Virus record (IMG/VR): IMGVR_UViG_3300020429_000539
Span: 172,263 to 236,262 of that record
Length of the DNA stretch: 64,000 nt
Strand: one strand, 5' to 3'
DNA from: a virus
Lineage: Duplodnaviria; Heunggongvirae; Uroviricota; Caudoviricetes
Under the pieces are notes generated by a model, which saw only the letters and a list, made by a program, of their open reading frames with translations, was not told where the DNA came from and did no database searches. Made by a program: the position numbers and the translations under genes. Of this stretch, positions 4,448-40,654 are shown piece after piece (position 1 is the stretch's first letter; each line of letters starts with the position of its first letter).

Positions 4448-4563
4448 TTTTAGGGGAGCCTCGTGGAACAGGCACTTCGCGGAAGATGGGTGCTATCTCT
4501 CCGCCCACATACGATTCCGCGACAACCCCATGAGGCGTGGACGATCGGAACCTCCTGCTCCTA

Positions 4564-4634
4564 GGGGCGTTGGTTTACAGAGATGCACGATGCTTCAATC
4601 GTCGTGTGAGGGGTTGCAATCCCCCTCCGTCCCA
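4564..4634 (+). tRNA. atypical tRNA with UCA anticodon (opal suppressor/Trp-like)
   Basis: Acceptor ggggcg/cgtccc, cgatg-ctTCAat-cgtcg, T arm agggg-ttgcaatc-cccct (8-nt loop), weak D arm. Confidence 0.55.
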
Positions 4635-4637
4635 TTT

Positions 4638-4760
4638 GCGAAAGTAGCTCAACTGGTAGAGCATCTTGCCCCATGATGGAGCGTACGCGAAGTCACAGCC
4701 AGTCCGGAACGGCTGCGGGGATCAACAAGAAGGTTAGGGGTTCGACTCCCTTCTTTCGCT
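4638..4760 (+). tRNA. Gly-like tRNA with 50-nt structured insertion in anticodon loop
   Basis: gcgaaag/ctttcgc acceptor, U73, perfect D and T arms, anticodon stem tcttg/caaga enclosing 57 nt. Confidence 0.8.
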
Positions 4761-4767
4761 TTCAGGA

Positions 4768-4836
4768 CTAGGGATGGTGTAATGGTAACACAGTCCTTCG
4801 GGACAGTCTATCGAGGTTCGATTCCTCGGCCCAAGG
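4768..4836 (+). ncRNA. tRNA-like RNA whose anticodon loop is a cUUCGg tetraloop
   Basis: D arm gtgt-aatggta-acac, gtcc-TTCG-ggac, T arm cgagg-ttcgatt-cctcg; acceptor has 2 mismatches. Confidence 0.7.
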
Positions 4837-4843
4837 TCCGTAG

Positions 4844-4981
4844 CTGCTGACAAGGCCCGCAAGGGAGGGTAACAGGAACCACCCGGAGTTGAAGCCAATG
4901 TTCCAAAGCCTCTTCGGACGCGGAGAGGCAATCTGGTCAGGCGACTGACTGGAACGGCAAAGAGGCACTCGCGGTCAGCAG
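4844..4981 (+). ncRNA. multibranched structured RNA, unknown class
   Basis: ctgctgac/gtcagcag closing helix; gttcca/tggaac; gcctct/agaggc; GCAA and GCGA tetraloops; no ORF. Confidence 0.65.
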
Positions 4982-4983
4982 AG

Positions 4984-5013
4984 GCCCTCGTCTTTCGGGA
5001 CGGGGGCTTTTTT
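4984..5013 (+). terminator. intrinsic terminator of the RNA island
   Basis: gccctcgtc-tttcgg-gacgggggc-TTTTTT. Confidence 0.85.
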
Positions 5014-5143
5014 CGTGTCCCTGCTTGATTCCGCCGAGATGCTCCTGTACCGTTACCACATACGTTGCAGGACTGGCTTCATGGGCCGTGAGACGGGACG
5101 TTCCCTCTTACACAGTCAACCGCCAGCATCAAGGAGATACATC

Positions 5144-5731
5144 ATGGCGAAGAAGGCATCCACCAAGAAGACCGGCTCGAAGGCCAAACGGACTCGTCGC
5201 GTGCGGTCCACCACCCGCTCGTCCATCATCCCCGTGTGGAGCGAGGGTCGCGAGGGCAGCAACAAGAACACGACCAAGCACAACCCCGAGGCGGGCAACC
5301 CCGATTCGCTCGTGGCGCACGTCAAGGAGTTCTTCGGCACGGTCGCCAAGCGGTTCGAGGCCAACAAGGGCTACGGTCGCCAGCACATCAACAGCAACGG
5401 CGTGGTCCATCCTGACGCGGCCCTGACCAAGAGCAATCGCGCCTGCACCAAGACGGCGATTCAGTTCATCGAGGTTCTCGCGCAGCGTGCTGCCCTCGCC
5501 GGCAACAAGGAAGCCGAGGCCATTTTCGAGGGCTCGCTGGCGACGCCCGCCGAGGCCAAGAAGTTCCTCGCCGACATCGCCAAGTTCGCCCGCGAACGCG
5601 CCAACCAGATCAAGGCCGATGAGAGCCAGGCGATTCTCGATGACATCGCCAAGGACATCGGCCTCGAAGACGGCTCGTCGCTCGTGCCCGCGTCGAAGGC
5701 CAAGGCCAAGCCGAAGGCCAAGGCTGGGTGA
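5144..5731 (+). CDS. Lys/Arg/Ala-rich putative nucleic-acid-binding protein
   Basis: SD AAGGAG, MAKKASTKKTGSKAKRTRRVR N-tail, KAKAKPKAKAG C-tail, strongly biased codons. Confidence 0.85.
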   Translation: MAKKASTKKTGSKAKRTRRVRSTTRSSIIPVWSEGREGSNKNTTKHNPEAGNPDSLVAHVKEFFGTVAKRFEANKGYGRQHINSNGVVHPDAALTKSNRACTKTAIQFIEVLAQRAALAGNKEAEAIFEGSLATPAEAKKFLADIAKFARERANQIKADESQAILDDIAKDIGLEDGSSLVPASKAKAKPKAKAG

Positions 5732-5757
5732 CAGGCACCTGATTCCCCTCACAAAAG

Positions 5758-5786
5758 GCCGCGCCTGTAATGGGCGTGGCTTTTTT
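5758..5786 (+). terminator. intrinsic terminator
   Basis: gccgcgcc/gggcgtggc hairpin + T6. Confidence 0.75.
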
Positions 5787-5823
5787 CTATCCACATACGA
5801 AGATCCTGCCGATACTATTAGGT

Positions 5824-6168
5824 ATGAACGCAGACGACATTCGTAGCGCGGTCGATGAGAAGTGGTCCCCAGAGGCACGGCTGCTCATCGAGAAGGCAGC
5901 ATCAACGGTTCACGAACACGCGGAAGCCCGTGTGGAACGTGAGCGAGAACTGATTGACGCGCTCGATGTTGCTCTGAAGGAAGCGACGACTCCGTGGTAT
6001 CTGAGTCTGTGGCCGAGCAAGAAAAGGTTCCGAGCGCTTGCGCATGCGTGCAGGATCGGAGATGAAGCTGAAGAAGGAATGATGGCGTTCGCCGAGGAAC
6101 AGGGAATCCATGTCGAGGGAACGGGATATCCGGCTGATGAAGAAGGTAGCCCGCGAACAGCGTCTTGA
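5824..6168 (+). CDS. hypothetical protein
   Basis: ATG 26 nt after CCACATA 5791. Confidence 0.75.
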   Translation: MNADDIRSAVDEKWSPEARLLIEKAASTVHEHAEARVERERELIDALDVALKEATTPWYLSLWPSKKRFRALAHACRIGDEAEEGMMAFAEEQGIHVEGTGYPADEEGSPRTAS

Positions 6169-6243
6169 ACGCGAACGCGAGCATGGCCGTCTCCGTGCCA
6201 AGTCATTCGGAGGCAAACCCTCGCCCAGGGCTGACCGTCGCAA

Positions 6244-6954
6244 ATGGAAACAGAACCGCGACGACCTATGAACAGACCAAGACTCAAACTCACAATCGAA
6301 GTCCCATTTGATGCGCCGTTGAGCGGCGAGACTGTCGAGGAGAAGACTGACAAACTCCTCGATGAGGTCCGTCGTGTTTTGCCTTCCGCCGAGATGTTGG
6401 GTGCAAGGGTCGAGGCAACGACTCTGTGGGAAAAGAACGAGGCGTCTGATTCGGACGACGTTTTGCGTCTGATCGATACGGCCTTTCTTCGTCTCGTGGC
6501 TATCGCTGACATCATCGGGGTAGACACGGCAGACGTGCGACGTGACCTGACTGTGGTTCCTCACCTTGATAATCACACTTCCAAGCCCGACCCGGGTGAG
6601 GCCCACGTTGTCCGGGTGGGCAGGCTCCTTCTTTACCGCTCCTTGTTCAACGGCGTGCGAGTATGGGTCGTGAGCGGTCAGCGTCGAGATGTCGAGCCAG
6701 GCACTCATGGTGGAGATGCTTTTCTGTCTGAACAGGTACAGGTTTGCAGAGATACGGAGTTCAGGGGTGTGCTGTCAGTTCTGCTCAATGCGCTGTCCAG
6801 CGAGAAGATCAACAGCCATTTTCGCGCGCAAGTTGACGAGTCTGAATACCTGATTCAAGTCGCGGAAGATTCCTCGGCGGCGCAGACCAAGGATTGTCAA
6901 GGGTTTATGAAGGGCGGCGAAAAAAGTCGCCCAAAAACAACCCCAAGCGGTTGA
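6244..6954 (+). CDS. hypothetical protein
   Basis: 236-aa ORF. Confidence 0.7.
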   Translation: METEPRRPMNRPRLKLTIEVPFDAPLSGETVEEKTDKLLDEVRRVLPSAEMLGARVEATTLWEKNEASDSDDVLRLIDTAFLRLVAIADIIGVDTADVRRDLTVVPHLDNHTSKPDPGEAHVVRVGRLLLYRSLFNGVRVWVVSGQRRDVEPGTHGGDAFLSEQVQVCRDTEFRGVLSVLLNALSSEKINSHFRAQVDESEYLIQVAEDSSAAQTKDCQGFMKGGEKSRPKTTPSG

Positions 6955-6979
6955 CGGTCGCGAGGGAGCGGTTTATACT
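6951..6979 (+). promoter_or_regulatory. sigma70-type promoter for the large ncRNA
   Basis: TTGACG-N17-TATACT. Confidence 0.8.
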
Positions 6980-6985
6980 TCCCCC

Positions 6986-8130
6986 ACGAGCCAAGGAAAC
7001 GAGGCACGCAACTGAGAGCTAACCAAGGAAACGAGGAAAGCTCAAAGTCGAATCGAAACTAAGGTCGCAAGACTAAGTTAAGATTCATCATCTTCAAACC
7101 AGAAATGGGATGAAGATGATTAGGAAAGCCAAGCTGCGAGGCCCATACTTTCCGACATATGCTGCGACCCAACCCTGCTTGCAGAAAGGGTCAAAAGCGC
7201 TAGGCTGAGCCAAATGCCAACCGGAAGGCGGGCATGTAACTCAAGACGCTCAACTCTTAGGTCTTGACCTGATTCTTGAGCGAGCGAGGAAGCGAAAGCA
7301 AAACTCGCCTAGAGCAGAAGGGCTTGAAACAGCCCCAAGCATGTGACCGAACCCACGCTCGACGCAGCGATGCGTAGAGAAATGGACGGTAACTGCTCAG
7401 CCAGTTTCGGCTGACTGAGTGGTTTAGAGCGGACTGAAAGGAAAGCTCGACTGCTAGAGGATGGCAAGCGGAATGCCCTATTCCAAAAGCAGATAGGCAA
7501 GCGCCGACGCGGATACCCGTCTTCGACCGCTGAGGATACTAGCCTATATTCTGCTGAGACGTAAAAAGCTCAGTAGGATTTAGACCAACCCGAAAGGGAG
7601 GTCGAGCCAGAAGGAAAGTCCATGCTTGGGCATGACGGCTACCTCTGGTATGTCAAAGCGAAGGACAGTTCCCAAGACTAGTCCCCAAGCTCACTGGCAT
7701 CAACCTGCTGGGTCTGAAAAAGCCCAGTAGGTTTTAGACCAAGGACGACCTGTAAAGGAAGCACCTAGTCGAGTAGACGGAGAGTCTCGAAGGCAACGGA
7801 GAGACAAACCGACATCTGGAGACTAAACTCATCGGTGACGATGAGGTAAACCTCCAAGGCAACATGAGTAACCTGTTCCCGCTTCGGCGAGAAAAAGATG
7901 CTCACGAGCCTCCAAGGAAGCGAAAGCAACACTTGGGATGGCGGAGAGGGCTTAGCCTCGGCAGCCCAAACCGATGCGTTCAAGAAGCAGGTCAGTAGAA
8001 ATACTGACACGAACCATTGAACAGGCAGCCCTGCGGGTAAAACCGTAGGGCTGTCTTCGTTTAACGACACAGGCACCTGACCTGTCCCAAAAACATTTCG
8101 GATGGCTTGCGGGTGAAATGTGGACGGCGT
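6986..8130 (+). ncRNA. ~1.1-kb highly structured RNA with RNase P-like core signatures in its 3' half
   Basis: No credible ORF; many GNRA/UUCG hairpins; duplicated modules with compensatory changes; GAAGGAAAGTCCATGC (7610), GGTAAACC (7845), CAAAAAC..ATGGCTT (8088-8108). Confidence 0.75.
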
Positions 8131-8217
8131 ATGATGGCGTCTTCCACATACGATTTCGCTACGAGATCGTGTGGCAGTCGCATCTTGTTCCGAGAACCCT
8201 TTTACGGAGAACCCCAA

Positions 8218-8730
8218 ATGGCTGATGAGCAGAACACCACGCCCGAGACCGAGGCCACCGAATCCACTGGACGGGCCACCGTCCCCGAGATCAACTCCAT
8301 CGAGGAACTCGGCGCGTACGTCGCCGAGTTGGAGGCCAACGAGACCGAGGGGCCGAGCGCCCGTGGCTACACCATCAACGGCGGCCTCCGTGCCGTGTCG
8401 CCGCTGTACTCCCTCTCGCCGAACGTCCTCCTCTCGATGGCGGGCTGCATCAACACGGCGCTCGCCACCCACATCAGCGAGGGAACCGAGGGCGCGCAGG
8501 AGGCTCTCGACCTCTCGATGGCGCACGCTCAGAACGCCGTCACCGTGACGCGCCACACCGCGCAGTTCAACAAGTTCCTCGACATGGCGATCGACCTCGG
8601 CTACGCCCCCGATGGCGCGAACACCGAGGCCCTGACCCACGAGCAGCAGGTCGCCACCGTCGATGCCTTCCTCGCCTCGCAGAAGGGCAAGGTCAACTCG
8701 TGGGCGGCGTGGCAGAAGGCCAACGCCTGA
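8218..8730 (+). CDS. hypothetical protein with highly biased codon usage
   Basis: SD GGAGA, CCACATA at 8144, terminator follows. Confidence 0.85.
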   Translation: MADEQNTTPETEATESTGRATVPEINSIEELGAYVAELEANETEGPSARGYTINGGLRAVSPLYSLSPNVLLSMAGCINTALATHISEGTEGAQEALDLSMAHAQNAVTVTRHTAQFNKFLDMAIDLGYAPDGANTEALTHEQQVATVDAFLASQKGKVNSWAAWQKANA

Positions 8731-8748
8731 ATCACGAACTCCCCCTCC

Positions 8749-8784
8749 GCAGCGTCGCCCTTTACGGGGCGGCGTTGCTTTTCA
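8749..8784 (+). terminator. intrinsic terminator
   Basis: gcagcgtcgccc/ggggcggcgttgc + T-tract. Confidence 0.8.
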
Positions 8785-8803
8785 TTTTCTTCGAGGATAT
8801 AAT
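8775..8803 (+). promoter_or_regulatory. sigma70 promoter giving a probably leaderless mRNA
   Basis: TTGCTT-N17-TATAAT, 6 nt before ATG 8810. Confidence 0.7.
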
Positions 8804-8809
8804 CTAGCT

Positions 8810-9628
8810 ATGGCTGGAAACCGAATCGGCATATCCGAGGCCCAAGCCCACCGTCTCATAGAAGCAGGACTAAACGCAGTACGAGTCCGCTCTCAACGCG
8901 ACGCCAATGGACATTTCCATTCGGGCACACTACTAGCACTGGTTGGGGACAAAGGGCAAGTAAAGCTCGCTTTCCATAAAGGCTCAGAACTAATACCCTT
9001 GCGCGATATTTTTCCATGGCGCAAGGGTAATCTGCTGCGCGGTTGTAAAGACATCAACGAACTTGACAAGATAGTTGGTAAGGACCAAGAGGAAGAAGCT
9101 GCTGTGTATTACGTCAACTATGACCGCAAGAACAGCTTGGTATGGTGTGGAACGACAAAGGGATGGACTCAACATCTTGTTCATGCCAAGTTATATCAAA
9201 GCCCAGGTCGCGCAAGCCAAGGCATGACGCGCGTTCTTAACCAAGACCGCTGGGCCAACATCTGCGACCGTAAGGATATCGACCAGATTCCCTACGAAGA
9301 GGCCGAAGAGCTTTTGGGAACCCTCTTCGCTCAGAAGGCTGAGCAGCAGAAGCCCAAGGCAGAAGAGCCTAAGAAGCAAGCCGCGCCCGCTGAGCCCACC
9401 AAGAAGGCCGAGGCTCCGACCAAGAAGGATGAAGCTCCGACCAAGAAGGCTGAAGCTCCGACCAAGCCTGACAAGGCCGATGACCTCATCAATCGTCTTC
9501 TCCGCACCAAGAAGGATGTCCAGGACGCTCGCGAAATGCTCGTGCTGGCTCAGTCTGAGTTCGAGCAGACGTTGGCCGAGCTTCAGCGTACGATGGGCAA
9601 CGAGACGGCTCAGGCACTCTCGACCTGA
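8810..9628 (+). CDS. hypothetical protein with PTKK(A/D)EA repeats and C-terminal coiled coil
   Basis: 272-aa ORF; 21-nt tandem repeats 9395-9466. Confidence 0.8.
   Translation: MAGNRIGISEAQAHRLIEAGLNAVRVRSQRDANGHFHSGTLLALVGDKGQVKLAFHKGSELIPLRDIFPWRKGNLLRGCKDINELDKIVGKDQEEEAAVYYVNYDRKNSLVWCGTTKGWTQHLVHAKLYQSPGRASQGMTRVLNQDRWANICDRKDIDQIPYEEAEELLGTLFAQKAEQQKPKAEEPKKQAAPAEPTKKAEAPTKKDEAPTKKAEAPTKPDKADDLINRLLRTKKDVQDAREMLVLAQSEFEQTLAELQRTMGNETAQALST
9395..9466 (+). repeat. ~3.4 x 21-nt in-frame tandem repeat
   Basis: cc(c/g)accaagaagg(cc/at/ct)ga(g/a)gct. Confidence 0.9.
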
Positions 9629-9661
9629 CCCACATACGTTCCGAGCTTCGTGCTGAAGAGC

Positions 9662-10249
9662 ATGAGCAACACACCGAACGTCGTGAACTACGGCCAAGAC
9701 TGCGACGCCATCAAGCTGGCGCTGCGGTCTGGCGAGCAGCGAGCCAAGGGCAACCCCGAGACCGCTGACCGCCTCCTTGTTGAGGCCCGAGCCGCTCTGT
9801 CTTCCGAGTTCGAGCCTCGCGAGGGCGACCCTCCGATGACCGAGTTCAAGCTGGCTAGCGATTCGATCGCTGCCACGCATCGTCGCTACATCAACAACCT
9901 CTACTCGGCCACGGTCTCGCCTCCGATGGATTTTCCAGGCGTGCCGTGCAAGGTTATCCACATCAGCATCTCGCGAATCGACCGCTCGAACTACATCCCG
10001 TGGCGGCACAAGCAGATCATCAAGAACAAGCTCATCGGCCCGACGCACGAGGCGGCTGAACTTTTCCCCTCTCGTGACCGCGTGATCGATGGCGCGAACC
10101 AGTTCCATCTGTGGGCTCTGGCTGACAGTAATGTCAGCTTCCCGTTTGGCTACCTCGGTGAGCGAGATGTCCTCGACCAAGAAGAGGCGAGGCGAGATGT
10201 CCCAGGCGTTCATCAGGCACCTTTCGTGGACGACCCCGAAGAGCTTTGA
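9662..10249 (+). CDS. conserved phage protein (HISISR...W...IKN.L.G...EA.ELFP....ID.ANQFHLW family)
   Basis: Recognisable phage family motif; ATG 25 nt after CCACATA. Confidence 0.75.
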   Translation: MSNTPNVVNYGQDCDAIKLALRSGEQRAKGNPETADRLLVEARAALSSEFEPREGDPPMTEFKLASDSIAATHRRYINNLYSATVSPPMDFPGVPCKVIHISISRIDRSNYIPWRHKQIIKNKLIGPTHEAAELFPSRDRVIDGANQFHLWALADSNVSFPFGYLGERDVLDQEEARRDVPGVHQAPFVDDPEEL

Positions 10250-10282
10250 CCCACATACGTTTCGCGAAGAAAGACGACGACC

Positions 10283-10678
10283 ATGAACAGCGAACTGTCC
10301 CAAATCATTCAGAGTCTTCTCGATTCCGAGAGCAATGAGGGCTGCTCTGATGACCTCACCGTTGTCAGCAGCGAGCCCATCGCCAAGCTCCGCGAACTGA
10401 TGGAGCAGCGCAACCTCTATGCCAAGAGGGACAGCAGCGGCCCCTACGAGGACCACCGCCGAGAGGTCGGCAACATGGGCGCTGGCAAGATGTGGGTTGT
10501 CAGATGGTCTTGCGACTTCGAGACCCGCATCAAGCTCGACCCCGATTCGACCGAGCAGGATGCCCGTGACATGGCGTGCGAACTCGACATCCCCGAGGGC
10601 ACAGCCGTCTACGTCGATGAGACGTTCGACATCCGCGAAATCGAAACCGAAGCCGACTACAAGGAGAAGTACGGATGA
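10283..10678 (+). CDS. hypothetical protein
   Basis: ATG 25 nt after CCACATA. Confidence 0.8.
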   Translation: MNSELSQIIQSLLDSESNEGCSDDLTVVSSEPIAKLRELMEQRNLYAKRDSSGPYEDHRREVGNMGAGKMWVVRWSCDFETRIKLDPDSTEQDARDMACELDIPEGTAVYVDETFDIREIETEADYKEKYG

Positions 10679-11028
10679 GAACTGTGACCGCAAACGCTCA
10701 GTTCACCGCCGACGACATCGAGTTCTGGAACCATGCTCTTCAGCACAAGGGGCGCATGAGCGACCAGCCGGATGTCATCGACAAGAAGACGGCAAACTTC
10801 GGCGGAGGCGTCGAGGTCGATATCAAGCTCTGCAACACCGATGGCACGGACGATAACAACGCGGGCGATGCTTCGACCCCGTATCTCGACATCGTTCTCT
10901 TCATCGACGGCTGCGAGGCCGGATGTCTTGAGCCGCGATTCTTCGCCATCGACAACGGCTACGAGTTCGACTTCGGCGAAGTTGATGACTGCAACTTCCG
11001 CGCCGTGGCTAAGGTCGAGGTCGTCTGA
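10675..11028 (+). CDS. hypothetical protein
   Basis: ATGA-coupled. Confidence 0.8.
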   Translation: MRTVTANAQFTADDIEFWNHALQHKGRMSDQPDVIDKKTANFGGGVEVDIKLCNTDGTDDNNAGDASTPYLDIVLFIDGCEAGCLEPRFFAIDNGYEFDFGEVDDCNFRAVAKVEVV

Positions 11029-11044
11029 AGTCGATAAGACCTAG

Positions 11045-11335
11045 ATGGAACTGGTAGAACATCTCAGGCACTTGGAATCCACCCTCCCCGAGGGGGTGGA
11101 TATTTCTGCGCGGATAAAGAAAATCGAGCTTGCAGAAAAGATGGGTGCAAGCACCTTCGAGCTTCTGATGCAGCTACTCCTCGACTTCGAGCCCATACGC
11201 ATCGAGAACCCCACCAAATACGACGAAATCCGACAGTTTCTCGCTCAACTCGGCGAACATCTCGAAGGGAAGCAACGATTCGTCTGGGAGAGGATTTTCC
11301 CACATACGGAAGAGGGCTCCGATGATGAGGCATGA
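11045..11335 (+). CDS. hypothetical protein
   Basis: 96 aa; contains both AGATGGGTGC (11139) and CCACATA (11300). Confidence 0.65.
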   Translation: MELVEHLRHLESTLPEGVDISARIKKIELAEKMGASTFELLMQLLLDFEPIRIENPTKYDEIRQFLAQLGEHLEGKQRFVWERIFPHTEEGSDDEA

Positions 11336-11535
11336 GTAATATCCAAGGCAGAACAATCGAAACCGTGCGCCCTATGACCCCCGACGAGCAAGATGTCGAG
11401 GGCTGGAGCCGTCCCGCCATAGTCATCGTTCTCGACGACGGAACCAAGATTTATCCGTCACGAGACCAAGAGGGCAACGGACCCGGAGCCATCTTCGGCG
11501 TCAGCGCTGCGGGAGAAACTTTCGGTCTCGCATAG
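11332..11535 (+). CDS. hypothetical phage protein
   Basis: ATG 25 nt after CCACATA. Confidence 0.8.
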   Translation: MSNIQGRTIETVRPMTPDEQDVEGWSRPAIVIVLDDGTKIYPSRDQEGNGPGAIFGVSAAGETFGLA

Positions 11536-11630
11536 TCCTTACGAACCCGAATCGGCGTCGGAACCAGAAAAGAAACCCGAACAGGCAAAAGCCGCTTGCC
11601 ACATACGCAGGCGACGCTTAGTCTTTTCGT

Positions 11631-11909
11631 ATGAACACAACACTTCCCATTCCGAACATTGGTCAGCGAGTCCGCTTTGTCCGCTCCGATTGGGGCGACG
11701 CAGGCATGAACATGCCGGTGGGCGCTGAGGGCAAAGTCATCGAGGCGAACGAGGACCGCATCACCCTCGAAATGGACGACCAGTGGCGAGAGAACACCGA
11801 GGACGGCGCGTGGGCTTTCTACCCCGAGTGTGGACCCGTGCCACATACGAATGGGTTCGACATGACACCCATCGAACAGTTCCACTTCCTCTGCGATTAC
11901 ATCAGTTAG
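11631..11909 (+). CDS. hypothetical protein (SH3-like beta pattern)
   Basis: IGQRVRFV...GAEGKVIE; ATG 25 nt after CCACATA, no SD. Confidence 0.75.
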   Translation: MNTTLPIPNIGQRVRFVRSDWGDAGMNMPVGAEGKVIEANEDRITLEMDDQWRENTEDGAWAFYPECGPVPHTNGFDMTPIEQFHFLCDYIS

Positions 11910-11919
11910 GAGACGCAAT

Positions 11920-12444
11920 ATGCCCTGTCGAAGCGACCACATGGAAGCCCAGCCCCGCGAAATCGAATCGCGTGCTGTTGCCAAGCACCTCGTCTATCTC
12001 ATCCCAATCGTGGGACACCCTACTGCGGGTCGCAACATCCCTGACGATATCCGCCACGCATCTACCAACTACTACGGCAATCGCGACAAACTCGACGAAT
12101 GGACCGCGCTGCTGTGCCGCATGTGCAAGGTTCTCGAATCGGATGAAGAGCGGGCAGATGAGTACCTGTGGGATGGGCGAAACAAGGATGCCCGCGCACT
12201 CGCCGATTGGTGGGAGCGTCACAAAGAGTTTGACCGCCAGCGCGAAGCGGAAGAGAACAAGGAAGACCTCAAGCTCAAGGCGCTCTCTGTTCTTGTTCAG
12301 GCGCTGTCGCAGACCGACTTCGGTGTGTCGGACGCCACATACGATGGCGACAACGACTCGGGCTCTCTCATCTTCAAGCTCGATGGCATGGAGATTCTGA
12401 TCCGAAGCCGAGATGTCCAAGTCTCAGAATGGAAGGACGACTAA
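11920..12444 (+). CDS. hypothetical protein
   Basis: 174-aa ORF. Confidence 0.75.
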   Translation: MPCRSDHMEAQPREIESRAVAKHLVYLIPIVGHPTAGRNIPDDIRHASTNYYGNRDKLDEWTALLCRMCKVLESDEERADEYLWDGRNKDARALADWWERHKEFDRQREAEENKEDLKLKALSVLVQALSQTDFGVSDATYDGDNDSGSLIFKLDGMEILIRSRDVQVSEWKDD

Positions 12445-32986: not shown

Positions 32987-33080
32987 CCAAACGCCCCACA
33001 AGGGGCAACTGCTACAAAAGATGGGTGCTAGAACACATACGGTAGAAGCGGGCGACCATGCCATGAAAGGAAGGCAAACC

Positions 33081-33506
33081 ATGACCGCAACCACGACAGC
33101 ATTCAAGTACCGGGCCGTTTATCTTTCCGCCGACACGGAAGAGGACAAGTGGGGCGACGGATGCCAGCCCGGCACGCGCTGCTGCAAGATGGACCAGAAA
33201 ATCAGTGTCGAGTCCGATTCGCTCAAGGGCCTGCTTGAAACTCTCGCGCAAGAGTGGGGGTTCAGCGAAGAACCCAGCGACGGCTGGATCATGATGCGTA
33301 ACCATGACGACACGGTGCGCCTCATCTATCAGCAGAACGAGAACGCGGACGGGCACCCCCTGACCGACAGCGAGCGCGAACGCTGGAAGAAGAACGAGAT
33401 CAAGGTCTGGCTCGCGGATTATTCGTTCACGGTCGAGAAGGCCCCCGCCGAGACATTCATCATCGGCGACGACGAGGCCGAGAGCATCGGGCTGGAAGTT
33501 AGTTGA
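33081..33506 (+). CDS. hypothetical protein
   Basis: SD GAAAGGAAGG. Confidence 0.8.
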   Translation: MTATTTAFKYRAVYLSADTEEDKWGDGCQPGTRCCKMDQKISVESDSLKGLLETLAQEWGFSEEPSDGWIMMRNHDDTVRLIYQQNENADGHPLTDSERERWKKNEIKVWLADYSFTVEKAPAETFIIGDDEAESIGLEVS

Positions 33507-33588
33507 CGCCAACTCTCCCCATAAGGGGAGGGCCTCGCAAAAGATGGGTGCTACTCGCACATAGCACCGCGCGACAGCCCCGTAGGGC

Positions 33589-33702
33589 ATGAACCTACTC
33601 ATGCTCATCATAAGCATCATCATCCTCATGGTCAAGTACTGGTACATTTCCGTGCCCGTGCTTGGCATCATCGCATTCCTCTGGGCGAAGGCGCAGGACT
33701 GA
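33589..33702 (+). CDS. 37-aa membrane micro-protein (not in ORF track)
   Basis: MNLLMLIISIIILMVKYWYISVPVLGIIAFLWAKAQD; ATG 25 nt after GCACATA. Confidence 0.7.
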   Translation: MNLLMLIISIIILMVKYWYISVPVLGIIAFLWAKAQD

Positions 33703-33750
33703 CCACATAGGTTAGTTTCAGGCACCCGTGGCATGAAAGGAAGGCAAACC

Positions 33751-34155
33751 ATGACACGCGACGACCTGACCCCATTCGCCCGAGGATACATTCAAGGGCT
33801 GCTCGCCACCAGTCTCGATGACGACCAGGAGCCGCTGGACGCCAACTACGATATCGAGGACATTCACCCCGATTCGCTTGAGAAGATCGCCGACGATTGC
33901 GCCAAGTTCGTCGCGGCGAATGAATCGCACTACGCCGATGCCGAGAATCTTTCCTGCTCGGACGGCATCTGGAAGCCCGCCGAATCCGCTGGCCTTGATT
34001 TCTGGCTGACGCGCAACGGCCACGGAAGCGGATTCTGGGACCCCGACCGCAAGCGGCACTATGGCGAGGCGAACGCGGAAGCGATGAACGCCTACAGCGA
34101 AGCCGCCGGCGGATGCGACGCCTACATCGGCGATGATGGCAAGGTCCACATCTGA
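33751..34155 (+). CDS. conserved phage protein
   Basis: AGLDFWLTRNGHGSGFWD motif. Confidence 0.8.
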   Translation: MTRDDLTPFARGYIQGLLATSLDDDQEPLDANYDIEDIHPDSLEKIADDCAKFVAANESHYADAENLSCSDGIWKPAESAGLDFWLTRNGHGSGFWDPDRKRHYGEANAEAMNAYSEAAGGCDAYIGDDGKVHI

Positions 34156-34306
34156 TCCTTTCCCCCTCCCCGCCGCAAGGCGGGTTGTAGGGGTGCATAG
34201 ATAAAGATGGGTGCTATCACTGTTTGGCATGCGCAAGTTAGTAGTTGCTATTTTCGTGCCACATAGTTTATATTCTGCGCGCCGAGGATTGAAAGGAAGG
34301 CAACCC

Positions 34307-34819
34307 ATGACAATCACAGCCGATAGCAACACGATTTTCCACGCCAAGAAGATCAGCCGCTCGCGGTGGGGGTTCGAGTTTCATCCGAATCTCACCGAGG
34401 TCGAGCGCGTCCGTTGCGTCGTGGAGTTCAACTACAAGCGCGGCACGGTATTCGTGACGACCGCCGAGAATCGAGACCTGAAAGCCCCCGGCGACGACTA
34501 CTACGAGTGGGACGCCATCGTGGAGGCGGGCAAGTCCTACATGGTCGGTTCGGATGTTCCGACCGATTCGTTCCTGAAGTCTCATTCGTCGTACATCCCC
34601 GCAGACCACTGGCTCGCGTTCGCCGTTGATTGGGCGTTCAAGAATCCCACGCAGCGGCTCATCGTCACCAAGCACAGCGGCCAGCCGCTCCACTACGAGG
34701 TCTACAAGCGCGGCGACTATGTTGAGATCGCGCTGCCCCACCACGGGCAAGGCGGAGAGAAGCACTGGGCGGTCCACGCCGACAGCCCCCGCAAGAAACT
34801 GCTCATCAATGTTGATTGA
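34307..34819 (+). CDS. hypothetical protein
   Basis: SD GAAAGGAAGG. Confidence 0.8.
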   Translation: MTITADSNTIFHAKKISRSRWGFEFHPNLTEVERVRCVVEFNYKRGTVFVTTAENRDLKAPGDDYYEWDAIVEAGKSYMVGSDVPTDSFLKSHSSYIPADHWLAFAVDWAFKNPTQRLIVTKHSGQPLHYEVYKRGDYVEIALPHHGQGGEKHWAVHADSPRKKLLINVD

Positions 34820-34923
34820 CGGGCACCTGCCCGACAGCCCCGCAAGGGGCAAGCCCTATAGAAGATGGGTGCAAGGCCACATAGCATAGTTGTTGCGGCT
34901 CGTCGATTATAAGGAGCAACACA

Positions 34924-35163
34924 ATGGACGCCCAGAACATCAGCATGATTCAGCACCACGCCCAGACTCTTCTTCGCGAATCGGGCTATAACGCCTCGAT
35001 TCTCAAGGGCGAGGGACGCAAGGGCGAGGATTATAGCCGCGCCATGGGGCTCTGGAAGGATTCGTGCAAACTCGTCCGCGAAGTGTTCCCCGAGGATGAG
35101 GCCGAGCGCATGATCGAAGCCACCTGGAACCCGAATAAGGTTGCGTTCCTGGAGAAGGCCTAA
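34924..35163 (+). CDS. hypothetical protein
   Basis: SD AAGGAG. Confidence 0.75.
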   Translation: MDAQNISMIQHHAQTLLRESGYNASILKGEGRKGEDYSRAMGLWKDSCKLVREVFPEDEAERMIEATWNPNKVAFLEKA

Positions 35164-35195
35164 CCACATACAGGCACCGCGCGAGGACGATGAAC

Positions 35196-35375
35196 ATGAG
35201 CAACACGAAGCAAACCAAGACCGATGGACCGACTCTTTGCTGCCCGTTTGGGCGCACGCCCGGCTACCCCTGCCGCATCTGTCGAGGCTCAGCCGTAACA
35301 GCCTACAACGGCATGAGCCGCGAGGAGCGCGACAAGCGTGACGCGCAAGCCCGATTCTCACAGTCCTGCAAGTAA
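35196..35375 (+). CDS. small Cys-containing protein
   Basis: ATG 25 nt after CCACATA 35164. Confidence 0.7.
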   Translation: MSNTKQTKTDGPTLCCPFGRTPGYPCRICRGSAVTAYNGMSREERDKRDAQARFSQSCK

Positions 35376-35459
35376 CCCCGAAAGGGGAACGACGCGAAAG
35401 ATGGGTGCAAGGCCACATAGGTTAGTTGTCCGCTCTCGTGCGATGAAAGGACAGCAACC

Positions 35460-35819
35460 ATGAAGACCCTGAAACTGAAAGACTTTCCGACTCTCGCGGC
35501 CCAAGTCAAGCGGTGGGTGCCCGGCTACCGTAAGCACAGCGTTATGGTGGCGGTCGCCGAGCGCGAAACCCCGTTCGGGTGGTGGTGGGACGAGGGCAGC
35601 AAGAGCGACTATGCTACGGCCCGCATCGGCGGCAGCGGCACGACTCCCTGGTACCCTCCGCAATACCCCGAGACGAAGGCCCAGCCGATTCCGACCGGCG
35701 GCGAGACTGTCGTGGTCGAGACCGGGGTATTCTGCGGCAAGCCCGCGACGATGCAACTCACCATCCACCCCAACGACCTCGCCCGCCTGGGCCTGAGCCC
35801 CGAGGACACGAAGCGATAA
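35460..35819 (+). CDS. hypothetical protein
   Basis: cassette gene, SD GAAAGGA. Confidence 0.8.
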   Translation: MKTLKLKDFPTLAAQVKRWVPGYRKHSVMVAVAERETPFGWWWDEGSKSDYATARIGGSGTTPWYPPQYPETKAQPIPTGGETVVVETGVFCGKPATMQLTIHPNDLARLGLSPEDTKR

Positions 35820-35914
35820 GCAAGGAGACCCCCGAAAGGGGGATATCATAGAAAAGATGGGTGCTAACGCACATAGGTTAGTTTGTTCGTGCCGAGGAAT
35901 GAAAGGAGCCAACA

Positions 35915-36124
35915 ATGGCATGGAACAAACTCCCCAAGTCTCGACCCGCGAAGCCCAAGCTCGACAAGTTTGACCTCGAAGCCGAGGCCGAGGGCAACGC
36001 AATCCGCACCGGCCCCACCGTCATCGGGCCCGTGGGCAAGCGCATCGCCCGCACGCGACGCGAACACGACCGAGGCAACGCCATCGCCGAGCGCGCCGCC
36101 ACCCGCCACATCCAAGTTGCCTAA
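35915..36124 (+). CDS. small basic protein
   Basis: cassette gene, SD GAAAGGAG. Confidence 0.75.
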   Translation: MAWNKLPKSRPAKPKLDKFDLEAEAEGNAIRTGPTVIGPVGKRIARTRREHDRGNAIAERAATRHIQVA

Positions 36125-36221
36125 TCGGGCACCCTCCCCAAGAGGGAGGCGTCGCATAAAAGATGGGTGCTAGAACACATAGGTTAGTTTCCTTTGCCCG
36201 TGGGTTGAAAGGAAGCCAACC

Positions 36222-36470
36222 ATGACCGAAATCGCTTACCCCCGTCGAACGCTCCAGAGTCTTTCACCGTTCCGCGAAATCATCGCCGTGGAGCCCCACA
36301 TGACGGCCATCCCCGCGTACTCGGACAAGCCGACCATGACGCTCGACGAAATGCGGACGCACGCCAAGAAGAATGGCGGAGGCACGATCATGCAGCAAGA
36401 TGATTCGATGCTCCCGCCGTTCGTGCTGACCAAGTACGACGCCGAGGGCAATGTCGCCAGCGTTTCCTAA
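36222..36470 (+). CDS. hypothetical protein
   Basis: cassette gene. Confidence 0.75.
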   Translation: MTEIAYPRRTLQSLSPFREIIAVEPHMTAIPAYSDKPTMTLDEMRTHAKKNGGGTIMQQDDSMLPPFVLTKYDAEGNVASVS

Positions 36471-36639
36471 ACTACCAGGCACCTCCCCTTGAGAAAGGGA
36501 GGATGCCTCGCAAAAGATGGGTGCTAAGTTATCAACCGCTATCAATCTTTATCCCACATAGGATAAGTCTTTGATATCGTGGGACAGTTGAGCGAGTTGC
36601 TCAAGTCAGAAACGGAAACCCTTTTTCAAGGAGATTCAT

Positions 36640-36858
36640 ATGTCCGCCAACAGCATCGAGATCGCCCTGCTCCACCCCCGCGCCGCCAAGCCCCTCGGCA
36701 AGATCAACCGCGTGCCGACCGTGGCCAGCGACGGCTCGATGACCGTCAACTACAAGGGCCGCAAGTTCTCGGTCCTCAACCTCGACGGCAAGAGCGTCCT
36801 GTACGTCAACCGCCCGCTCGGCTCCGAATACAAACAGCGCGAGGCCGTGGCCGCGTGA
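36640..36858 (+). CDS. hypothetical protein
   Basis: SD AAGGAG, terminator after. Confidence 0.75.
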   Translation: MSANSIEIALLHPRAAKPLGKINRVPTVASDGSMTVNYKGRKFSVLNLDGKSVLYVNRPLGSEYKQREAVAA

Positions 36859-36988
36859 CCACACAGCAAACCGTCCCCTCCCGGTGTTTGGACTCCGCCG
36901 GGAGGGGCGGTTTTTCCGCGCACAGAAGATGGGTGCTAACGCACATACGATGAACTCCGCCGCCCGTGGGTTGAAAGGAAACAAACCC

Positions 36989-37255
36989 ATGAACATCGGA
37001 AACCTCATCGTTCAGACCATCGACCGCTCGCGCCTCTGCATCGACGGCGAGATCGACACGGGCGAGAACAACGGTTCGGGCGAAATCATCGTCCGCGCAA
37101 CAGGCGCGACGCCCATCACGGCCCGCTCATTCCAGTTTACGGGCGTGACCGTCGAGACAAGCGGCGACTACGCCACATGGAGCGAGGACAACCTTAAGGA
37201 CGAGGCCGCGCAGATGCTCGCCCGCGACTACACCGAAGAAGTGGACGAGGACTAA
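36989..37255 (+). CDS. hypothetical protein
   Basis: cassette gene. Confidence 0.75.
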   Translation: MNIGNLIVQTIDRSRLCIDGEIDTGENNGSGEIIVRATGATPITARSFQFTGVTVETSGDYATWSEDNLKDEAAQMLARDYTEEVDED

Positions 37256-37304
37256 CCCACATAGGTTAGTTTCAGGCACCCGTGGGTTGAAAGGAACCCA
37301 AGCC

Positions 37305-37532
37305 ATGACCGAAACCAAGAATGAAACCGTCTACGATGCCCTGAAGAACGCGGGCTGCAAGTTGGACAATCACGAATCGGACCTCTATGTAGAGGACACC
37401 GCGACGGCCCGCGAGATCATCGCCCGATTCGACCTCAAGGCCAAGCCGTTCCGAAGCCAGATCGACCAGGCCATGTGGCTCGAACTCCCCTTCATGCACC
37501 AGCCGTTCTGGGACCGCAAGGCGAGGGGATAA
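37305..37532 (+). CDS. hypothetical protein (DNHESDLYV motif)
   Basis: cassette gene. Confidence 0.75.
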   Translation: MTETKNETVYDALKNAGCKLDNHESDLYVEDTATAREIIARFDLKAKPFRSQIDQAMWLELPFMHQPFWDRKARG

Positions 37533-37685
37533 CGGACCTTTCAGACCGCTGACCCGCCCGAGCGCAACCGCGAGGCGTTCCACCCCGAGACGCCTGGCGG
37601 GCGCGGTCTTTAATATCGCACAGAAGATGGGTGCATGAACACATAGCATAGTCCGCCATCCCCGAGCGATGAAAGGAAGCAAACC

Positions 37686-37886
37686 ATGAGCGACCCACGC
37701 ACGACCCCCGAGCAGCCCTTCGATGACTTCGACACGCAGAGGCAGGTGGAAGAAGAGTATCCCGACCCGCCCTATGATGGCGCGGACGAGGACGGGCTCA
37801 CGGACGTTGAAGCCGACGCCATGACCCTCCGCGACTGCGGCATGGGCACGGACGAGGACTATGGCTTCGCGGCGGACATTATCTAA
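37686..37886 (+). CDS. small acidic protein
   Basis: cassette gene. Confidence 0.75.
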   Translation: MSDPRTTPEQPFDDFDTQRQVEEEYPDPPYDGADEDGLTDVEADAMTLRDCGMGTDEDYGFAADII

Positions 37887-37981
37887 CCTCAACACCCCGC
37901 AAGGGGGGCAGCATAGAAAAGATGGGTGCCTGACCACATACGAAATACTGCCAGTCCCGAGCGATGAAAGGAACCCAAGCC

Positions 37982-38260
37982 ATGAACATCAAGCCCGTAG
38001 CCAAGCGATTCTATGATGACCTCATGCTCGACTCGATGCCGTCGTCGCTCGCCGTTCTCGTGGACTTCGGATTCAATCACGCCCACCCGCAGAAGCGGCT
38101 TTATGAGGCCTATCAGAAGGGAGCCCGCGCGGGCACCTTCACGCTCGAAGAAATGAGCGAAGCCGTTGGCGACGGTCCCGCCCTGACCCGACTCATTCAG
38201 CGCGTCGATTCGTCCCTCGAAGTTGTGACCGACTACGACTTCCTGGACGAGCCGATGTAA
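37982..38260 (+). CDS. hypothetical protein
   Basis: cassette gene. Confidence 0.75.
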   Translation: MNIKPVAKRFYDDLMLDSMPSSLAVLVDFGFNHAHPQKRLYEAYQKGARAGTFTLEEMSEAVGDGPALTRLIQRVDSSLEVVTDYDFLDEPM

Positions 38261-38374
38261 ACCACCCAAGCCCCCTCCACCGAGAGGGGAGCGGTCATAT
38301 AAAAGATGGGTGCATAACTCACATTCCCACATACAAACTTTTCCGCGCGCCGAGAAATGAAAGGACGCGGAACT

Positions 38375-38737
38375 ATGAAAGCCTCAGAACTCGAAAAGCA
38401 ACTGCCGCCCATCGCCCGTGGGCTCTACAACCTGAAACGGTGCTTTGGCTCGAACGCTACCATCGGCATCGTGCTAGGACCCGGCTGTAGGACCGGCCAC
38501 TATCGAACCCTCGCCGAACTTGAGGACGCGGGCCACATCCCACCAGGCTACAGGCACCTAGACCCGTATCTGGCAGCCGTTCCGACCGTCTACACATGCA
38601 CGACGGAAGAAGTCGAACTCATCCCCAGCCGCAACCCAGAAGGCCCAGAGTGCCCGTGGGTCGAGGCAAACCGCAGAGCAGCGGAAGCCCGCGCACGAGT
38701 CGCCCGCAAGCGAGAAATCGCCCGCCTCAACACATAG
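38375..38737 (+). CDS. hypothetical protein
   Basis: cassette gene. Confidence 0.75.
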   Translation: MKASELEKQLPPIARGLYNLKRCFGSNATIGIVLGPGCRTGHYRTLAELEDAGHIPPGYRHLDPYLAAVPTVYTCTTEEVELIPSRNPEGPECPWVEANRRAAEARARVARKREIARLNT

Positions 38738-38777
38738 GATAATCTCACGCGCCCGAGGCATGAAAGGACGGGCAACT

Positions 38778-39236
38778 ATGACCGAGGCAGAAACCAAAAT
38801 CCTCCCCAACCCCTCAATCGTGCAAATCAGAGAGGACTTCAGCCGCGAATGGCTGCGCACGAACCGAATCGACCGCGTGATGGGGCAGTACGCCTACGAT
38901 GCTGCAAAGCAGGTCCACTGCTGCGAAATCACGCCGAGTTATGAACTCACCTTCATCCGATACGAGGCCGTCTACGCCGAGGGATACGAGCCCGACGACG
39001 AGACCCGCGAGCATATCGAGGTCGAACTGACCGAGGCCAGCGCAATCGACCAGGGCGTCATCTATATCCACTGCCGCTCGGTCGATGCAATCGCCGAGGT
39101 CGCCGAACTGTCAGACATCCCAACGGGCGAGCCGTGGCGCATGGCTTGGAATAAGGAGGACGAGAGGCACGACCGCGACGACTCGGACGAGCAGGTCGAA
39201 GAGGTCCGCGAATACTTCAACTGCAATCACCACTGA
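38778..39236 (+). CDS. hypothetical protein
   Basis: cassette gene. Confidence 0.75.
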   Translation: MTEAETKILPNPSIVQIREDFSREWLRTNRIDRVMGQYAYDAAKQVHCCEITPSYELTFIRYEAVYAEGYEPDDETREHIEVELTEASAIDQGVIYIHCRSVDAIAEVAELSDIPTGEPWRMAWNKEDERHDRDDSDEQVEEVREYFNCNHH

Positions 39237-39336
39237 CCAACCCCTCCCCCTTGAGAAAGGGGAGGCCACGCACAGAAGATGGGTGCTAGAACACATACGA
39301 TATCTTTCCGCGCACGAGACGAGAAGGGAGCCGACA

Positions 39337-39588
39337 ATGAGAATCACGATCGATACCGACGAGTCATACGCCCCAGGCTGCTTCCTGCTCTGCCAGGTCG
39401 ATGACTCGGACAACTGGGATACGCGCGACGAATCGCGTACCATCCTCGTCCAGCGAGATACAGACTTTCCCGCGATGGCCCGAAACTTCGGCTGGACCGG
39501 CGAGGACTCGGATATCGAGCAAGCCGTGGACTATCTTCACGATACCGCGTGCGGAGAGATCATCGACGACCCCGGCTATTTCAACTGA
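39337..39588 (+). CDS. hypothetical protein
   Basis: SD GAAGGGAG. Confidence 0.75.
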   Translation: MRITIDTDESYAPGCFLLCQVDDSDNWDTRDESRTILVQRDTDFPAMARNFGWTGEDSDIEQAVDYLHDTACGEIIDDPGYFN

Positions 39589-39635
39589 CCCACATAGGTT
39601 AGTTTCTGCCGCCCGTGGCATGAAAGGAGTCAACA

Positions 39636-39833
39636 ATGACTTGGGAAGAATTCGTCAAGGCGTGCAACAAGGCCGTGGAGCGCAAGATCGGGATGCATCG
39701 GGACGACCTCCCCGATACCATCGACCTGGCGGACTACTGGGACGAGTCAATGAGCCGCGAGGACTGCGAGCGCGCCGCCAAGGAATTCGCCGACGACCTC
39801 GTGAGCGAGCAAATGGAAGAAATGGGATTCTGA
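39636..39833 (+). CDS. small acidic protein
   Basis: SD GAAAGGAG. Confidence 0.75.
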   Translation: MTWEEFVKACNKAVERKIGMHRDDLPDTIDLADYWDESMSREDCERAAKEFADDLVSEQMEEMGF

Positions 39834-39936
39834 ACGGAGCCCCCGAAAGGGGGATATCATGCAAAAGATGGGTGCTACTCGCTCTCGCTCCCACATAGTT
39901 TATCATTCGCCGCCCGTGGGTCGAAAGGAGCAAACA

Positions 39937-40404
39937 ATGCTTAGCCACCTGACCCGCCTCATCGGAATCGTCAACGCCTGCAACGCCGCTCTCGCGAACC
40001 TCTCCGACCCCCGCAGCCTTGCCGAGGTTGCCACGATGAAGCAAACCGCCGAGATCCTGATGTCCTCGCTCGCGACCGATGACCCCAACCGCGACGCGAC
40101 GCTCGAACTCGTCTGGGCCAGCCCGCTCAACTTCGCCCTCGCCTGCCAGGTCGTCAACGAGAACCCCGCCGAGGATGTCGAGACGACGCTCTACCTCATC
40201 GCCGAACGCTGCTACCTTGTCGCCGATGCGACCGAGACGGGCACCCGCGAGACCGTGATGCACGAGCCGCACCCGATGGATCGCAAGGTCTCGCTCGCCG
40301 CCAGCATCCGCCGTGGGGCGTGGGGACCGTTCCACCGCCAGCAGAAGTACCCGAGCAAGCCCAGGGGCTCGACGCTCAGCGACAAGCGCAAGGCCGTGGC
40401 CTAA
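39937..40404 (+). CDS. hypothetical protein
   Basis: last cassette gene, SD GAAAGGAG. Confidence 0.8.
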   Translation: MLSHLTRLIGIVNACNAALANLSDPRSLAEVATMKQTAEILMSSLATDDPNRDATLELVWASPLNFALACQVVNENPAEDVETTLYLIAERCYLVADATETGTRETVMHEPHPMDRKVSLAASIRRGAWGPFHRQQKYPSKPRGSTLSDKRKAVA

Positions 40405-40654
40405 CTAACCACCTCACAGCACACACGAACTAACTAGCCCCTAACTTAGGGGTTATGTTAGCTTAACTAATATGCACGCCACCTAACATATGGTAGGCTG
40501 TATAGAAGATGGGTGCAAAACTGTTTTGGGGTAGCCCCCACCATACTCCCCATTTTCCTAAAACTAAGGTATCCATATTGGGGGTATGGGTTCCCTTTTG
40601 GTATATCTACCCTTTTTATGGAGGAGCTAAAACGCTTTTGGAACATTAGGAGAT

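Follow-up and report, generated by a model that had tools for sequence, protein, structure and literature searches.

What does a short DNA word do when it recurs on one strand only, at closer and closer intervals, and then stops? This question is raised by a 64,000-nt stretch of DNA (the window) that comprises bases 172,263–236,262 of the 488,051-bp virus record IMGVR_UViG_3300020429_000539, a marine huge phage whose own genome is called G000 here. The initial annotation had read the word, AGATGGGTGC, either as an activator/anti-terminator site or as a directional signal pointing to the 40.5–41.3 kb locus of the window. Our analysis indicates that it is, very probably, a cis-acting transcription signal carried by regulatory cassettes prone to recombination, rather than a signal for DNA tracking or packaging. 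A narrower proposal, that the word forms the core of an upstream, -35-independent promoter within cassettes resembling the PeSLs (stem-loop plus early promoter) of T4-like phages, is the leading reading, at about even odds.

In an exact search, AGATGGGTGC was found 31 times in the window, always on the + strand, against 0.17 copies expected by chance and a maximum of 2 in shuffled sequence. The whole record contained 36 copies and no reverse-strand copy, and all 36 fell within genome positions 162,946–212,778 (window -9.3 kb to 40.5 kb), a single high-GC block of about 50 kb. The initial annotation had named occurrence on both strands or uniformly over the genome as a refutation of its reading; the genome-wide map returned no reverse copies and confined the word to 50 of 488 kb. 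The counts that it had given, 31 copies with none in reverse, 8 of them before 27 kb and 23 in 27–40.5 kb, were reproduced, and the absence of copies after 40.5 kb held for the entire record. The invariant core is the 11-mer AAGATGGGTGC, one base longer than AGATGGGTGC and followed by (T/A)A. A mismatch scan found no credible variants of the 11-mer with one or two mismatches, the matches elsewhere being chance-like and within coding sequence; the 11-mer is all-or-none. The copies in the window are listed below, where "AGAT start" is the first base of AGAT and the 11-mer begins one base earlier.

Window 4483–40516, + strand: 11-mer series, 31 copies by exact search; 5 more copies lie upstream of the window.
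Window 4484, 11139, 17252, 18147, 18900, 20459, 22802 and 25305, + strand: AGAT starts, part 1.
Window 27084, 28113, 28807, 29858, 30372, 31183, 31971 and 32444, + strand: AGAT starts, part 2.
Window 33019, 33542, 34205, 34863, 35399, 35855, 36161 and 36515, + strand: AGAT starts, part 3.
Window 36927, 37625, 37920, 38304, 39277, 39866 and 40507, + strand: AGAT starts, part 4.

The block that carries the copies (genome 160–215 kb) has a G+C content of 55–60%, compared with 44–48% in the rest of the genome, and is densely filled with small genes on the + strand. The orientation of the 11-mer was the same as the gene direction in 36 of 36 copies, the block being transcribed on +, and about 33 of the 36 copies were intergenic, with about three inside open reading frames (ORFs). 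The suggestion of a transcription-related site was therefore right in kind, as the word is tied to gene starts, co-oriented with the genes, largely intergenic (~33/36) and sigma-like in sequence (see below); it may start transcription, pause RNA polymerase or bind a regulator.

Each cassette is built in the same order: a GC-rich hairpin that ends the previous unit, 10–11 nt, the 11-mer, a CACATA(C/G) box and a gene. The features that define this arrangement, together with the copies that depart from it, are as follows.

Window 27083–40404, + strand: dense array of 22 single-gene units, each with hairpin, 10–11 nt, 11-mer, box, predicted start 31 nt past the C of the box, and then either ATG or GAAAGGA plus ATG at 45–47.
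Window 35829–35917, + strand: typical cassette, with hairpin at 35829–35842 (CCCCC-GAAA-GGGGG), 11-mer at 35854–35864, box at 35870–35876, predicted start at 35901, ribosome site at 35902–35907 and ATG at 35915.
Window 138–39597, + strand: CACATA(C/G) boxes, about 71 in the whole block.
Window 4483–4634, + strand: first window copy, with a box at 4506 and then a UCA-anticodon tRNA at 4564–4634; the arrangement is kept in the relative L107.
Window 11138–11148, + strand: in-ORF copy (96-aa ORF), lacking a hairpin as well as a box within 70 nt.
Window 18146–18189, + strand: box-less copy, with a strong terminator hairpin, 13 nt, the 11-mer, 29 nt containing GGAGG, and the ATG of a 211-aa gene.
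Window 40506–40516, + strand: last copy, with no box, followed by a conserved stretch without a confident gene (to 41330).

The hairpin lies almost always upstream of the 11-mer and takes two forms, either a short CCCC-GNRA-GGGG hairpin that has no T-run and ends 10–11 nt before the 11-mer, or a classical terminator followed by TTTCCGCGCACAA. GNRA tetraloops are common among the cassette hairpins, most of which have no T-run. The distance of 10–11 nt was found in nearly all short-hairpin cassettes of G000 and of its close relative G001, and the spacer sequences differ. An inverted repeat, GCAC-N9-GTGC, which had been noticed in "many copies", is present, but in just 10 of the 31 window copies, and is a by-product of the GCGCACA prefix in classical-terminator cassettes. 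In a consensus scan of the dense array, neither sigma70-consensus promoters (4 vs 4.6 expected) nor T-run terminators (19 vs 16.9 expected) were above chance.

The (C)CACATA(C/G) boxes number about 71 on the + strand of the block and are almost absent elsewhere in the genome. When the 71 boxes were anchored on the C of CACATA, a common register appeared: C at offset 23 in 87%, then R-W-G, with Y at offset 30 in 90% and R at offset 31 in 93%. The genes behind them form an apparently leaderless class (~27 genes), with the ATG exactly at offset 31 and no ribosome site, and a leadered class (~25 genes), with a GAAAGGA ribosome site from offset 32 and the ATG at 45–47. By this register, CCACATA(C/G)-N16-CG(A/T)G is a putative bipartite, lineage-specific promoter (P2) with a predicted start at offset 31. 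Among the RNA-library contigs X18–X20, which are short, low-depth and unstranded, one begins exactly at the predicted CACATA start at 39323 and the others do not.

The 11-mer preceded 29 of the 71 boxes within 70 nt; the other 42 boxes often follow the previous stop codon directly. The gap between 11-mer and box, counted to CACATA, ranged from 4 to 57 nt, usually 4–5 nt with a mode of 5 (12 of the 29 copies with a box within 70 nt), and showed no helical phasing, and seven copies had no CACATA box at all. The gap had earlier been described as mostly 3–11 nt and ranging over 40 nt; the short mode and the wide range were borne out. The same description had rightly ruled out a fixed -35 partnership between the word and CCACATA. 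Since the distance varies without phasing, independent abutting modules fit better than a spacing-dependent activator. Three long-gap cassettes (window 22812–22847 and 29868–29899; G001 651–690) share an insert between the 11-mer and the box, approximately tcacgc-Y-atgacagttgcg-Y-gc, with a short CACGC/GCGTG inverted repeat; this insert may be a further operator or a small hairpin.

The rise in density toward 40.5 kb is real. The CACATA boxes climb from 1–7 to 11–13 per 5 kb in that direction, and the share of boxes carrying the 11-mer was 5 of 29 (17%) in genome 160–195 kb compared with 21 of 30 (70%) in 200–213 kb. The density climbs because genes become shorter and more cassettes are complete, and the series stops because the array stops. 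It thus tracks gene density and cassette share and is not a polar DNA signal. A polar DNA-tracking signal (Chi-, KOPS- or pac-like) directed toward 40.5–41.3 kb or the genome end would account for the absolute strand polarity, the rising density and the abrupt end, but we consider it extremely unlikely: gene length and cassette share account for the gradient, and the word stays within 10% of the genome (50 of 488 kb), avoids coding sequence, is tied to gene starts and has a copy number that follows the cassette number in the close relative. Chi/KOPS-type motifs are spread through the genome, coding sequence included, with a polarity tied to replication or translocation, whereas the 11-mer occupies 10% of the genome and is intergenic and gene-start tied. 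The packaging or ejection signal that the initial annotation had proposed for this locus is not supported, on the same grounds.

The sequencing depth around the end of the array was the remaining point in favor of a polar signal. In the DNA run X1 (Logan contigs), the k-mer depth was 20.3–20.9 over window 2.5–41.5 kb and 10.3 from 41502 on, a ratio of 2.0 at 41495–41502, about 1 kb past the last 11-mer copy. A collapsed long terminal repeat could lie behind this 2:1 step, and the step hints that the whole block is a terminal redundancy of about 50 kb carrying a host-takeover array. However, the change in depth falls within an ORF, and the block is crossed, without an end there, by an independent 477-kb assembly. 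The "direct terminal repeat" of the record is merely a 39-bp overlap of its ends and is therefore uninformative on the physical ends. Strain heterogeneity is the simpler reading of the step. An apparent X1 joint from 25317 to 31167 was rejected as a repeat artefact, as only 23 nt supported it on one side and two near-identical cassettes were joined. The host-takeover module in the terminal redundancy of SPO1 and the pre-early region of T5 are dense arrays of small early-type genes, every gene having a strong promoter and terminator of its own. The present block resembles them in this design, but its promoters are not of the sigma70 type, and one 2:1 depth step is all that bears on terminal redundancy.

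The last copy opens onto a conserved stretch (window 40528–41330, with up to 90% identity to G001) that is split in the window by an insertion of about 550 bp and is uninterrupted in G001 (G001 7925–8400). The insertion carries a 142-aa ORF (40655–41083) whose match to HNH is weak (E = 0.014, below the cut-off), and it is flanked by two copies of CCATACTCCCC, at 40541 and 41089. No Rfam match was found in this stretch, in either the window or the G001 form.

The cassettes were compared with those of the relatives G001, L107 and L106. An IMG/VR scan for the pattern 11-mer-gap-CACATA returned 90 stretches, with one true relative (G001) and single chance matches in the others; a scan for the variant pattern of L106 returned only chance matches. 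The array had no near-identity match among GenBank phages, and a literature search for the 11-mer word returned only unrelated primers. G001 is a 104-kb fragment with 70–85% nucleotide identity, which carries 9 copies of the 11-mer, all on +, within its first 7.9 kb and none in the other 96 kb; it samples an 8-kb end of the block of this relative. In seven G000/G001 cassette pairs, the 11-mer was 100% identical and each flanking segment only 47–53% identical. Within 8 kb, at least six genes have been gained or lost singly between the two genomes and one unit has been transposed, and the synteny breakpoints coincide with 7 of the 9 G001 copies of the 11-mer. No paralogy was found among 52 block proteins, 10 of 10 array genes had no Pfam family and 9 of 10 had no PHROG. 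The array genes are unrelated, so the cassettes were not carried along by duplicated genes, and an origin as a by-product of tandem duplication was rejected for this lack of paralogy. Near-identical cassettes before unrelated genes probably also serve as recombination points, by which the array would grow, shrink and reshuffle between relatives, with copies accumulating toward 40.5 kb.

The G001 comparison also bears on a possible action in RNA. The hairpin stems of G000 and G001 stay paired despite C-to-T changes, whose G-U pairs are compatible with the + transcript and with no other strand, and the fixed hairpin-to-word spacing and frequent GNRA tetraloops point in the same direction. The hairpin plus AAGAUGGGUGC in read-through transcripts could then be a processing or 3'-end-forming site (for example, of a sequence-specific endoribonuclease) at which polycistronic RNA is cut into hairpin-protected monocistronic mRNAs. 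We regard this as very unlikely, because a complementary partner is absent (zero reverse-strand copies in the genome), the in-ORF and tandem copies have no hairpin, no structure is predicted for the word and no nuclease candidate is known.

In more distant lineages, the word was conserved or changed in concert. L107, whose GHKL protein is 79% identical, has the 11-mer at the same places. In L106 (49% identical), GATCGGTGC replaces the 11-mer in every copy at orthologous places, namely, a tandem pair before the first gene of the block (49 bp apart) and a site upstream of the GHKL gene. The promoter box is TTCACATGC in L106 and CCACATAC in G000. The 20-kb L106 locus (1300–19800) contains 15 TCACATGC boxes, all on +, but only two GATCGGTGC words, and the word is therefore old and was amplified only in the G000/G001 array. 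TerD, TerB, VWA, Na/Ca-exchanger and DnaJ-like genes occur in the L106 block as well but are absent from the G000 block. More distant relatives still (37–40%) have GGACTAAACTT with a TATAAT-like hexamer and leaderless ATGs, and no 11-mer was seen in them.

What, then, would read the word? Its sequence resembles a sigma-type element. In the nAAGAT hexamer, A at position 2 and T at position 6 are invariant in 36 of 36 copies, GGG comes next, and a pyrimidine-purine (Y-R) step lies 7–8 nt after GAT in 34 of 36. The lambda PR' pause element AACGATGGGT, read from J02459, matches the 11-mer at 9 of 10 consecutive positions (AA-GATGGGT); the PR' region in J02459 runs TTGACT-N17-TAAATT-tgactc-AACGATGGGTTAAT. 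Sigma-dependent pause elements consist of -10-like plus discriminator-like sequences bound by sigma region 2 (PMC9191641), and sigma region 1.2 contacts the DNA just downstream of the -10 element, some promoter types needing no -35 element (PMC3173786). At the sequence level, the layout of a -10-like followed by a discriminator-like element on the non-template strand is present in the 11-mer.

The favored reading is that the 11-mer is the core of a second, upstream promoter (P1), in which nAAGAT would be the -10 hexamer (A at -11, T at -7) and GGGTGC the discriminator on the non-template strand, with a start at the pyrimidine-purine step 7–8 nt after GAT. Host RNA polymerase would read P1 with either the host primary sigma or one of four phage sigma-like proteins, and P1 and the CACATA promoter P2 would provide two inputs, probably of two temporal classes, to the same gene. 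A phage RNA polymerase was not found (PF00940, PF00562 and PHROGs on 14 large proteins), a weak negative because the PF00940 control was silent, and four sigma-like ORFs of two domains, region 2 and a helix-turn-helix of region 4, lie outside the block (genome 259520–260371, 96583–97383, 458139–458933 and 134537–135265). Taken together, these two results make host polymerase redirected by phage sigmas the likely machinery.

Three contexts would fit initiation at P1. At the box-less copy at 18146, the 11-mer is the sole recognisable upstream signal. In L106, a metallophosphoesterase gene (MKILGDIHG) that lacks a Shine-Dalgarno (SD) sequence has its ATG directly after TAAGATCGGTGC, and the A lies 7 nt after the hexamer. 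The second copy of the tandem pair before the first gene of the block has a -35-like hexamer (TTGCGA, TTGCGG and TCGACA) at 17, 17 and 16 bp in three lineages, the intervening sequence having diverged.

Several observations weigh against a promoter core. There was no -35 enrichment upstream of the 11-mer (mean score 2.36 vs a null of 2.37), a TG extension was absent (positions -15 to -13 are A-Y-A), and position -12 has A or G in 35 of 36 copies in place of T. The primary-sigma holoenzyme alone may therefore read the 11-mer poorly; with no -35 element elsewhere, the 11-mer, if it is a promoter core, is -35-independent. The expectation that genes behind the 11-mer carry an SD was borne out as no more than a trend, with an odds ratio of 3.6 (p = 0.051), which was gone from window 22 kb on (p = 0.49), and nine genes of the leaderless class bear the 11-mer. 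The ATG-abutting case in L106 is a single instance for which translational coupling could account. Full invariance is likewise shown by the stoperators of mycobacteriophage, so an operator would fit this property too.

The same resemblance to the lambda element allows another reading, that of a sigma-dependent pause or checkpoint, in which RNA polymerase running past a weak hairpin, with sigma retained or rebound, would be captured by the -10-like/GGG word and stall about 5 nt beyond it, insulating the units or loading a Q- or RfaH-type factor. The 9/10 match and the published definition (PMC9191641) fit such an element, as do the absence of a -35 element and the lack of a T-run in most hairpins, which makes read-through likely. 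We nevertheless judge it improbable. Known promoter-proximal sigma pauses occur 10–25 nt after a sigma70 start, and here the element immediately before the 11-mer is a hairpin, not a promoter; a single loading site in each operon would suffice, yet there are 36 copies; no Q- or RfaH-like gene was found, no search aimed at one having been made; and the ATG-abutting copy and those with a conserved -35 fit initiation better. With the lambda element, the 11-mer shares the A at position 2, the T at position 6 and the following GGG (9/10 bases); the lambda element, however, sits once at +1 to +10 of a full sigma70 transcript, whereas the 11-mer occurs in 36 copies after hairpins. Equally improbable, in our estimate, is its specific form, a reiterated sigma-capture element after each weak hairpin that insulates the ORFan genes and leaves them to the phage-sigma CACATA promoter; if true, sigma-dependent pausing would serve here, at genome scale, to insulate transcription.

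The last alternative is an operator, stoperator- or activator-like, of a phage DNA-binding regulator, whose monomer would bind the asymmetric 11-mer on double-stranded DNA just before the CACATA promoters and switch the units together or block read-through. L5-type stoperators are asymmetric, conserved, multi-copy, intergenic sites in one orientation; the immunity repressor binds them, and they are spread over both genome arms of temperate phages. The 11-mer is like them in its asymmetry, conservation, copy number, single orientation and place in short intergenic gaps, but it is found in one block of a huge, probably lytic phage and not over both arms. No repressor or integrase was identified among the proteins scanned. 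At a gap of 5 nt, the site would be centred near -42 of P2, a classical activator position, and a single-base change shared by all L106 copies is what co-evolution with a binding protein could produce.

A candidate for such a protein comes from the block's first + gene (genome 164,439–165,314, 291 aa). It has homologues in all five lineages compared, L108 and L109 among them, with an invariant IRVLQRLGG-NPYGLKLAQ-G-CI segment, and in G000, L107 and L106, whose DNA upstream of this gene was compared, it is preceded by a tandem 11-mer pair (48 bp apart in G000) in a divergent control region. The gene product had no Pfam or Atlas match; its AlphaFold model was poor (pLDDT 52), with a helix-turn-helix plus a beta-hairpin, and Foldseek gave no significant match to this model, just weak winged-helix-like rows. 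It may be a candidate reader of the 11-mer, as a lead only. The poor fold model and the lack of a significant fold match also count against an operator, as do the spacing to P2 of 4–57 nt without helical phasing and the seven copies without a box; it would also have to be coincidence that 9 of 10 positions agree with a sigma region 2 element and that the Y-R step lies at the expected distance. On this balance, an operator is doubtful, though we give it more weight than the pause.

The promoter reading can be set beside known systems. PeSLs of T4-like phages combine a stem-loop and an early promoter, occur in hyperplastic regions and act as recombination points, with mini-circles as a product of the recombination (Arbiol et al. 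2010, PMC2839356; Comeau et al. 2014, PMC4122927). The cassettes described here are similar in that they are composite stem-loop-promoter units in one orientation before small ORFans of a hyperplastic region, and in that indels and transposition between close relatives break at them. They differ in promoter type: the early promoters of PeSLs follow the sigma70 consensus and have AT-rich DNA upstream, whereas here there is no sigma70 consensus and the word is G-rich; the invariant 11-mer stands in place of the AT-rich upstream region and is joined by the lineage-specific CACATA promoter, giving two promoter-like modules, and most hairpins have no T-run. The late promoters of T4, TATAAATA, are short, nearly invariant and -35-less and are read with gp55. 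Both they and the 11-mer would lie near -10, without a -35, in tens of copies, but the sequences differ, and the sigma-like ORFs of this phage keep a region-4 helix-turn-helix, unlike gp55. Other candidates were tried and rejected: a sigma54 -24/-12 promoter (GG and GC are only 2 nt apart), an N4-type hairpin promoter (the spacing is wrong), integron attC sites (there are no such repeats and each unit owns a promoter) and a short ORF from an internal ATG (the frame is inconsistent).

Other features of the region were also noted. At the left edge of the block, a control region (genome 162,960–164,230) contains six copies of a different word, AGCACTGAT(A/T)(G/A)G, whose L106 counterpart is CTTACACTGAATGGG (6–10 copies), and six minus-strand CACATA(C/G) boxes with a spacing of 42–93 bp, which lie in a non-coding stretch downstream of a gene of the Fic family (Pfam 28.9 bits). 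A tRNA cluster (window 2521–4760) comprises five tRNA-Leu, Val and Met, the UCA tRNA and a 123-nt Rfam tRNA match at 4638–4760; Rfam gave only tRNAs in the window and nothing in the first 20 kb of G001. Past the block, window 50000–64000 has a G+C content of 41–48% and encodes glycosyltransferases (GT29 sialyltransferase-like, DXD-motif and capsule-synthesis-like), a GDSL lipase-like protein and large proteins with chitobiase/Fn3-associated C-terminal domains.

How the arrays of unknown small genes in huge phages are expressed and renewed is poorly understood, and the cassette described here is a clean, sequence-defined example. Dozens of unrelated genes have it in front of them, and gains, losses and moves of genes occur where it stands. 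The PeSL idea, drawn from T4-like phages that use host-type promoters, is thereby extended to a marine megaphage whose promoter vocabulary is its own. With the one-base change in L106, GATGGGTGC and GATCGGTGC form a natural specificity pair by which the reader could be sought, and the near-identity to the lambda pause element supplies a concrete hypothesis that can be tested in vitro. The words can also be used to annotate transcription units in this phage group.

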